Shown: positions 26,921-28,261 of the stretch, piece by piece
Layout of the letters: the number at the start of each line of letters is the position of its first letter
How positions within the stretch are numbered: position 1 is the stretch's first letter
Assembly: GCA_041746415.1 (NCBI GenBank)
Contig: JBGTHB010000062.1
Coordinates: forward strand, 1-30,938
Direction of reading: 5' to 3'
Length of the DNA stretch: 30,938 nt
From: Coxiellaceae bacterium
GTDB lineage: Bacteria > Pseudomonadota > Gammaproteobacteria > Coxiellales > Coxiellaceae
The notes under the pieces: generated by a model
Seen by the model: the letters and a program-made list of their open reading frames with translations, nothing else
Database searches by the model: none
Told to the model about the DNA's origin: nothing
Program-made: the position numbers and the translations under genes

Positions 26921-28261
26921 ATGAAATTGTTGCGCTTCACCTTAATCCCATTGCTCCTCATTGTTTTGACTCCACCCTCTGCGATATTAATTTGGTATAC
27001 CAACACCACACTCGGCGGTTCGCTTTACGCCTTGTGGCAACAATTTTTGAGTAACGGGTTTATTTCAACGTTATACCATATTTGGTCACCGGTATTTTTT
27101 GGCTCAGCAAAAGCATGGGGCATTATTTTTATTTTCGCAGCAACACAACTGCTACTAATGCGGTTGGTGCCGGGCAAAAAAGAATATGGCCCAGTTACCC
27201 CTCAAGGCAACACACCGGTTTATAAAGCCAATGGTTTTACTTGTTTTGTGATCACAATTTCATTATTTGTCGTCACCAGTTTTGGCTTACACTGGTACTC
27301 ACCCGCCATTGTCTACAACAATTTTGGCGCAATTTTGGGTGCATTAAATTGTTTTAGTTTGTTGTTTTGTGTTGGTTTATATTTGAAGGGGCGCTTCAAA
27401 CCTTCAACTAGTGATGCTGGCATAACGGGCAATATTCTCTTTGATTACTACTGGGGCACAGAACTTTATCCTCGTGTTCTAGGCTGGGACATCAAACAGT
27501 TTACCAACTCACGCTTTGGCATGATGAGCTGGCCAATTATTATTTTGTCGTTCGCTGCCAAACAAGATCAGTTGTACGGTTTGAGCAATTCTATGTGGGT
27601 CGCGGTGGCCATCATGTTGGTTTATATCGGTAAATTCTTTTTATGGGAAATGGGCTACATGCGCTCACTGGATATCATGCACGACCGCGCTGGTTATTAT
27701 ATTTGCTGGGGTTGTTTAGTCTGGGTGCCTGCGGTTTACACTTCGCCGATTCTATATTTGGTCAATCATCCAATAGAGCTTAACGAACTCAGCGCGTTTT
27801 TAATTTTAATCGCTGGTATTAGCAGCGTACTTATTAATTTCTGGGCGGATAAACAGCGACTGCGAGTGCGCGCCACCAATGGCAACTGCACAGTTTGGCG
27901 CAAACCACCCGTGCTTATTAAGGCCAACTACACCACGGCAACAGGCGAGCAAAAACACAGTTTATTATTAGCTTCAGGTTGGTGGGGCGTGGCGCGGCAT
28001 TTTCATTATGTGCCAGAAATCCTCGGTGCTTTTTTTTGGACGTTACCCGCACTGTTTCATCATTTGTTACCCTGGTTTTATGTTATCTTTTTAACCGTAT
28101 TATTGTTGCATCGCTCACTCCGTGATGAACAACGCTGCCGCTTAAAATACGGCATTTATTGGCAGCAGTATTGTGAGAAAGTGCCGAATCGCTTGCTCCC
28201 AGTGATAATAACCCGTACCTTAAACCAACTGCTCTTTTTCTGGAAATCTTCAGTAAATTAA
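26921..28261 (+). CDS. Sterol reductase, ERG4/ERG24/DHCR7 family (eukaryotic-type delta-7 or delta-14 sterol reductase homolog)
   Basis: This is a polytopic membrane protein. Its C-terminal signature [19 protein letters not shown]...[47 protein letters not shown] aligns residue by residue with the DHCR7 and ERG24 signature (GxWGxxRHxxY...LLxHRxxRDxxRCxxKYGxxWxxYCxxVPYRIxP). The start was moved to MKLLRF, which has an AAGGA ribosome-binding site. Confidence 0.9.
   Translation: [446 protein letters not shown]

Follow-up and report, generated by a model that had tools for sequence, protein, structure and literature searches.

A predicted DWF5-type sterol reductase of a Coxiellaceae bacterium and the gene block it has in common with Coxiella burnetii

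Introduction

Why does a bacterium of the family Coxiellaceae carry a sterol reductase of eukaryotic type, and does its position close to a type VI secretion system (T6SS) carry any meaning? The question is raised by contig JBGTHB010000062.1 (assembly GCA_041746415.1), of which positions 1 to 30,938 were analysed; this whole stretch of 30,938 nucleotides is referred to here as the window. An initial annotation, made from the sequence alone, had placed a gene of the ERG4/ERG24/DHCR7 family at positions 26921-28261 and regarded the region as probably horizontally acquired cargo for interaction with a host. Orphan sterol reductases of this kind were already described in 2009 and are routinely annotated. 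The answer favoured here, which we consider reasonably probable, is that the gene encodes an intact, multi-pass, NADPH-dependent delta-7 sterol reductase of the inner membrane that acts on host sterols, and that it is the orthologue of C. burnetii CBU1158 within a vertically inherited block. The small new point is a conserved, probably co-transcribed partner gene.

Gene call, family and fold

The gene and its upstream signal are placed as follows.

26921-28261, plus strand: coding sequence of the DWF5-type sterol reductase, 446 amino acids (aa), from ATG 26921 to TAA 28259-28261.
26910-26914, plus strand: Shine-Dalgarno-like AAGGA, read from the sequence, six bases 5' of ATG 26921.

The mechanical list of open reading frames (ORFs) starts the gene at GTG 26882, in the same plus-strand frame. 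ATG 26921 is preferred because AAGGA lies upstream of it and because the 446-aa version aligns over its whole length (100%) with the C. burnetii homologue. The string AAAAGGATTG occurs upstream of both the reductase and the partner gene that follows it. Hydropathy analysis of the protein finds at least seven strongly hydrophobic segments, and an exact look-up has no identical copies on record on other contigs.

Profile searches support the family assignment of the initial annotation. The protein matches Pfam PF01222 (ERG4_ERG24) at E = 1.9e-66 with 225.1 bits (cut-off 27), and the alignment is near full length, pairing residues 48-429 with profile positions 53-431 of 432. It is the sole Pfam match at E <= 0.01, and no NCBIfam model was matched. 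Among PDB entries, residues 11-429 match the solved bacterial sterol reductase MaSR1 (4QUV; E = 2.5e-58), and there is a weaker match to a fungal-type delta-14 reductase (9L5R; E = 1.3e-36). An AlphaFold2 model built with 74 homologues reached a predicted local distance difference test score (pLDDT) of 94.3 and a predicted template modelling (TM) score of 0.91. In Foldseek, this model aligned with 4QUV at E = 3e-23, TM 0.79 (query) and 0.89 (target), with a root-mean-square deviation of 3.1; the two 4QUV chains were its only significant PDB neighbours. Together, profile and model comparisons confirm an ERG4/ERG24-family sterol reductase that is predicted to adopt the polytopic membrane fold of MaSR1.

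Subfamily and phylogenetic placement

The best named relative is CBU1158 of C. burnetii (AAO90669 / Q83CG0, annotated as 7-dehydrocholesterol reductase), with 65% full-length identity at 100% coverage. Other named matches, all at 60-65%, come from Parachlamydia, a Tatlockia metagenome-assembled genome (MAG; 63%), Chlamydiales, Verrucomicrobiota and gammaproteobacterial MAGs, and metagenome proteins are up to 74% identical. The homology search thus recovered the Coxiella, Legionella and chlamydia-like relatives that had been named beforehand. Confinement of the family to a few intracellular bacteria, as then stated, is outdated: close homologues occur in MAGs labelled Verrucomicrobiota, Polyangiales, Chitinophagales/Bacteroidota, Rickettsiales and, in one case, spirochaete.

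Identity to streptophyte and green-algal DWF5 proteins is 51-54% (about 53%) over 407 trimmed columns, compared with 37% to human DHCR7, a value to be treated as approximate, the human sequence used being 89% identical to a database representative, and 35% to MaSR1. The Arabidopsis DWF5 query, an approximate sequence 94% identical to a real Brassicaceae protein, served only to retrieve genuine plant sequences.

A neighbour-joining tree (143 sequences, 200 bootstraps), from which delta-24(28) ERG4 and CBU1206 sequences are absent, splits a DWF5-type group from an animal-DHCR7/MaSR1 group with 96% support. The former contains the plants, many protist or unlabelled representatives and all bacterial relatives. 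Within it, the reductase falls into a gammaproteobacterial clade of 19 sequences with CBU1158 (82% bootstrap). Sequence comparison thereby places the protein in the plant DWF5-type delta-7 subfamily, not the delta-14 type, as the orthologue of CBU1158. The sterol delta-7 reductase of L. drancourtii (FJ197317; Moliner et al. 2009), whose gene was described as transcribed and plant-like in the same work, belongs to the same bacterial DWF5-type group. Its identity to the present protein has a floor of about 47%, an unreliable value derived from a codon-optimised copy damaged by optical character recognition.

A phylogeny had been proposed to decide between eukaryotic and bacterial affinity. It does nest the protein among known bacterial homologues; supports are below 25% both for monophyly of all bacterial sequences and for their placement relative to plants and protists. 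A Salinispira MAG, the amoebozoan Cochliopodium and the protist Fabomonas are among the unlabelled representatives nearest to the protein's group in the tree. Moliner et al. (2009) proposed a transfer from plants to chlamydiae and onwards to Legionella and Coxiella. The family is now far wider in bacteria than a few intracellular pathogens, so that it must be asked anew which way the gene passed between bacteria and plants or protists; the relevant nodes of the neighbour-joining tree have supports below 25%.

Two side observations arise from the tree. MaSR1, a 'delta(14)-sterol reductase' by its deposited name, is 44% identical to the approximate human DHCR7 sequence as against 35% to the plant and bacterial DWF5-type group. 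Delta-7 reductases thus seem to fall on two separate family branches, one in animals and one in plants and bacteria. P0060, a reductase homologue labelled Nitrosarchaeum, groups with gammaproteobacterial sequences and probably represents a mis-binned or contaminant contig.

Conserved residues and cofactor pocket

Three motifs frame the predicted cofactor site and the family signatures.

27428-27475, plus strand: first sterol-reductase signature in its DWF5-type form (ELYPR), residues 170-185, defined by conservation in 74 homologues.
27995-28009, plus strand: RHFHY, residues 359-363, with H362 aligned to N359 of MaSR1 (4QUV alignment).
28100-28153, plus strand: second sterol-reductase signature, residues 394-411, with R398 aligned to the NADPH-pocket residue R395 of MaSR1.

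Residue conservation was scored across 74 bacterial and plant DWF5-type homologues. Every position that is invariant among them is retained, including E243, D255-R256, the RHFHY block and, in the second signature, R398, R401, C406, K409 and Y410. In the first signature, G179, E181, L182 and P184 are invariant, and G170, N171, D175, Y177, W178, Y183 and R185 nearly so. The C-terminal peptides quoted in the initial annotation are present in the translation. So is the PROSITE-type family pattern [LIVM](2)-x-H-R-x(2)-R-D-x(3)-C-x(2)-K-Y-G near the C-terminus.

Crystallographic and mutational background gives these residues a role. In MaSR1, N359, a ligand of the NADPH phosphate, and R395 line the NADPH pocket, and mutation of the equivalent positions in human LBR leads to loss of NADPH binding (PMC4951196). 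The pocket arginine is kept here, whereas the position of N359 is histidine in all 74 DWF5-type proteins. Since functional plant enzymes are among these, H362 is a trait of the subfamily and no defect; R398, D402 and H362 are all kept as in the functional plant enzymes.

Variation within the second signature follows the lineages. H397, the 'LLLHRS' form, is typical of a Coxiella-like subclade (29 of the 74 sequences), and other bacterial and plant sequences mostly have D at this position, with a few E or N. CBU1158 has the same LLxHRSLRDE variant, D is found in sequences of Legionella type, for instance the Tatlockia MAG protein, and the plant signature reads LLFDRAKRDD as opposed to the LLLHRSLRD type seen here. 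Plant DWF5 proteins nevertheless have the ELYPR, SGWWGxxRHFHY and KYG motifs in common with the present protein and the same predicted chemistry; they differ in their endoplasmic reticulum location and in operating within a complete sterol pathway.

A gene block shared with Coxiella

The reductase gene is flanked by two further genes of the block.

26062-26766, minus strand: YkuD-domain protein (L,D-transpeptidase / LdtF-DpaA-like), the divergent upstream member, PF03734 at E = 1.5e-6.
28272-29816, plus strand: partner gene, 514 aa, Methyltransf_28-like in its N-terminal part and TPR in its C-terminal part, starting 10 bases past the reductase stop.
28262-28266, plus strand: AAGGA of the partner gene, read from the sequence.

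The YkuD protein also matches NF040599 (E = 4e-21), under the cut-off of that model. Genome loci with homologues that were compared with the window carry L numbers, L023 being C. burnetii and L021 and L022 uncultured relatives. C. burnetii has, in this order, the trp operon, the YkuD gene (minus), CBU1158 (plus) and the Methyltransf_28/TPR gene (plus), so that CBU1158 has the same neighbours on either side, in the same orientations, as the present reductase. L022 has trp followed by the same three genes and L021 has trp followed by the YkuD and reductase genes; in L024, L026 and L027 the partner lies directly 3' of the reductase. The YkuD orthologues of L021, L022 and L023 are 56-60% identical and occupy the same place and orientation. 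In all relatives with a visible upstream flank (C. burnetii, L021 and L022), the trp operon borders the block, whereas here the block follows the T6SS cluster and one 318-aa gene. Across 20 genome loci of many phyla, the reductase is the only gene in common with the window.

C. burnetii and the present host are only distantly related, with an Mfd identity of 55%; Mfd is 53% identical to that of L. micdadei, and its best unnamed match reaches 64%. These values mark the organism as an uncultured relative that is deeply separated from Coxiella and Legionella. The block proteins are 58% (YkuD), 65% (reductase) and 48% (partner) identical to their Coxiella counterparts. Because this divergence (48-65%) is about that of the housekeeping protein Mfd and synteny is shared, the three-gene block looks vertically inherited from an ancestor in common with Coxiella, and any transfer would be older than the split of the lineages. 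Occurrence of the block in C. burnetii dates the acquisition to before that split, which speaks against taking each gene of this kind for a recent gain that serves host interaction.

As a side observation on these comparisons, P0525, an Mfd homologue labelled Kaarinaea lacus (cyanobacterial assembly), stands among gammaproteobacterial sequences and probably reflects contamination or mis-binning.

The partner gene is conserved in its own right. Four orthologues align over their full length at 45-58% identity, and all four match Methyltransf_28 (MidA/NDUFAF7-type class I S-adenosylmethionine methyltransferases; best E = 1.4e-7). The copy in the window is a distant match, under threshold at E = 0.002. 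The orthologues have an invariant ELGxGxG motif and a TPR C-terminus. In C. burnetii the gene is intact, as tblastn gives a single high-scoring segment pair over residues 4-514, and the database gene call starts late. A PDB profile search with the N-terminal domain returned nothing below E = 1.7, and a single-sequence structure model of the 514-aa protein had a pLDDT of 35 and was not used.

Spacing between reductase and partner is 10 bases here and about 60 bases in C. burnetii, and the stop and start codons overlap in L024. Judging from the gene arrangement, the two genes are probably co-transcribed. Homologues of the partner are encoded at 80 metagenome loci, of which only the closest (58-59% identical) have a reductase upstream; the other neighbours at these loci gave no functional clue. 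As the partner family is common in metagenomes with no reductase nearby, the pairing is lineage-specific and does not reflect a general coupling.

Within the Coxiella lineage, the two genes might form a functional unit, with the partner acting by methylation or recruitment of either a sterol or a protein that works with the reductase. We give this proposal a rather slim chance. If true, the role of CBU1158 in host sterol handling would depend on a second gene. The partner is in this sense a candidate functional companion of CBU1158 in Q fever biology. A literature search for CBU1159 and CBU1160, the guessed locus tags of the C. burnetii partner, found no paper.

Predicted function and alternative explanations

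As a delta-7 sterol reductase, the protein would hold NADPH in a C-terminal pocket formed by the RHFHY and LLLHRSLRD motifs. Hydride would be transferred to C7=C8 of a delta-5,7 sterol in a membrane-embedded cavity, yielding a delta-5 sterol. The substrate would most likely be a sterol of the eukaryotic host, for example amoebal ergosterol or 7-dehydroporiferasterol, or animal 7-dehydrocholesterol, and the outcome may be a remodelling of sterols in the membrane against which the bacterium lives. A host sterol is the likely substrate because the known Coxiella and Legionella carriers are devoid of the rest of a sterol pathway; CBU1158 in particular is a putative delta-7 reductase in a genome without one (PMC8787468, PMC12224891). 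In Acanthamoeba, the two main sterols (ergosterol and 7-dehydroporiferasterol) are both delta-5,7 dienes, from which we infer that amoebal host sterols are plausible natural substrates.

Evidence on activity comes from relatives. A yeast-engineering study of 2025 screened ten delta-7 reductases, three of them bacterial (PMC12507675 source data). The L. drancourtii enzyme converts ergosta-5,7,24(28)-trienol to 24-methylenecholesterol in engineered Yarrowia: strain ST11058, carrying its gene, contained 13.4-17.2 mg/g 24-methylenecholesterol and 0.9-1.6 mg/g residual ergosta-5,7,24(28)-trienol, whereas the parent ST11040 had 0 24-methylenecholesterol and accumulated the trienol (PMC12507675). At least one bacterial member of the group is therefore a true delta-7 reductase. 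The C. burnetii paralogue CBU1206 (Stmp1) does have activity and reduces the cholesterol of the vacuole (PMC8787468, PMC12224891).

Several points weigh against a delta-7 reductase acting on host sterols. In that screen, strain ST11060 with the Protochlamydia homologue made no 24-methylenecholesterol (PMC12507675). A 2025 review still lists CBU1158 with 'enzymatic function unknown'. Sterols have not been detected in C. burnetii membranes, so the access of an inner-membrane enzyme to host sterols is in need of explanation. The window covers 31 kb of the genome only, so a de novo sterol pathway may be encoded elsewhere. At the level of the gene, Ser197 stands where nearly all homologues have Cys (FTNCRFG) and is the sole odd residue, and a consensus scan of the 154-bp intergenic region found no plus-strand promoter.

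The alternative that survives best is that fold and NADPH chemistry are kept and the substrate is another one, which might be an oxysterol, a sterol reduced at a different double bond, or a bacterial lipid or polyisoprenoid. In that case, 'delta-7 reductase' is a name borne by homology only. The inactivity of the Protochlamydia homologue on the yeast delta-5,7 substrate fits this view, as do the still putative activity of CBU1158, the broad specificity ascribed to its paralogue Stmp1, which affects 25-hydroxycholesterol, and the occurrence of the family in many bacteria that may be free-living. On the other hand, the L. drancourtii homologue of the same bacterial group reduces delta-7 in yeast, and the present protein combines about 53% identity to plant DWF5 with the invariant motifs common to 74 sequences. 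On balance a different substrate is unlikely, with an appreciable chance of being right all the same.

Some bacteria synthesise sterols. The reductase might accordingly belong to an endogenous sterol pathway whose other genes lie outside the window, and homologues in MAGs labelled Polyangiales and Chitinophagales, as well as the limited view of 31 kb, leave room for this. Against it, a scan of the window ORFs found no sterol-pathway gene besides the reductase, no such gene recurs within 6 kb of 25 reductase homologues, and C. burnetii, whose genome lacks the pathway, has the syntenic orthologue as an orphan. We regard an endogenous pathway as quite improbable and retain host sterols as the likely substrate.

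The T6SS neighbourhood and the question of acquisition

The features that bear on a link with the T6SS, or on recent acquisition, are the following.

12222-24869: T6SS cluster with TssJ, K, L, M, A, B, C, a second TssC-like protein, E, F and G.
24854-25810, minus strand: 318-aa ORF with no Pfam or NCBIfam match and the lowest G+C content (GC) of the window, 0.359.
30783-30858, plus strand: tRNA-Arg (anticodon TCG), 80 bases from the contig end and 2.5 kb 3' of the reductase.

A T6SS neighbour had been noted beside the reductase, and the cluster is genuine: it ends 2.05 kb upstream, with two opposite-strand genes between. The adjacency is physically real and is not conserved. None of the reductase homologues examined (loci L001-L025) has T6SS genes beside it, and the block stands beside trp genes, with no T6SS, in C. 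burnetii, L021 and L022.

Could the reductase nevertheless be cargo of a recently acquired island that is functionally tied to the T6SS? Its distance of 2.05 kb from tssG, its GC at third codon positions (0.474, the highest in the window) and, as a weak positive, the tRNA-Arg downstream are compatible with such an origin. The gene lies outside the T6SS operons, behind the two opposite-strand genes, and the association is not kept in relatives. Its GC is 0.433 against 0.409 for the window, and its synonymous codon distance of 0.130 is ordinary, in the middle of the window range of 0.07-0.26. Family scans of the window ORFs found no integrase or transposase; repeats were not searched. A polytopic membrane protein of this type is also not an expected T6SS substrate. 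Given the position of the block beside trp in relatives, the unremarkable base composition and the lack of visible mobility genes, the adjacency is best seen as incidental; the block did not arrive with the T6SS, and an origin as T6SS-linked island cargo is highly improbable. The description of the region as horizontally acquired cargo is, for the same reasons, not supported.

The last alternative, a mis-assigned enzyme of the isoprenylcysteine carboxyl methyltransferase (ICMT) type or another member of the Steroid_dh clan, which had been named beforehand as the finding that would overturn the family assignment, can be dismissed: ICMT and sterol reductases have a related C-terminal cofactor-binding architecture and ICMT 5V7P does appear among the weak Foldseek matches of the model, at E = 1.1 and TM 0.32 as compared with E = 3e-23 and TM 0.79/0.89 for 4QUV, and Pfam gives ERG4_ERG24 alone, with no ICMT or PEMT match at E <= 0.01.

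Other features of the window

The remaining features lie on either side of the block.

476-11381: secD, yajC, tgt, a major facilitator superfamily transporter gene, an SPFH protein gene, mnmA and mfd.
11740-12258: 172-aa ORF just upstream of tssJ, with no family match.
19506-20963, plus strand: TssC/VipB-like sheath protein, 485 aa.
20891-22054, plus strand: second, consecutive TssC/VipB-like sheath protein, shorter and more divergent, 387 aa.
29947-30711, minus strand: NAGPA-domain protein (phosphodiester glycosidase, 'uncovering enzyme'-like), 254 aa, E = 1.4e-30.

The tRNA-Arg is the only RNA family detected in the window. No Hcp, VgrG, PAAR or ClpV families were found among the scanned window ORFs of at least 100 aa. 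The T6SS core looks complete, in a relative of Coxiella and Legionella, lineages that are better known for the Dot/Icm type IVB system. Apart from the trp-flanked loci of C. burnetii, L021 and L022, the T6SS is absent from view in the other three block-bearing relatives too. The 318-aa ORF, which lies on the strand opposite to tssG and shares 16 bases with the end of that gene, could be T6SS-associated or lineage-specific.

More widely, two gene families each recur within 6 kb of a reductase homologue, at five loci each (among L001, L004, L006, L007, L008, L010 and L015, which are Chlamydiae/Verrucomicrobiota-type loci and one Chitinophagales locus). Judged by eye from the sequences, one family resembles alpha/beta-hydrolases and the other resembles serine hydrolases of the beta-lactamase family; they could be sterol-ester or lipid hydrolases.

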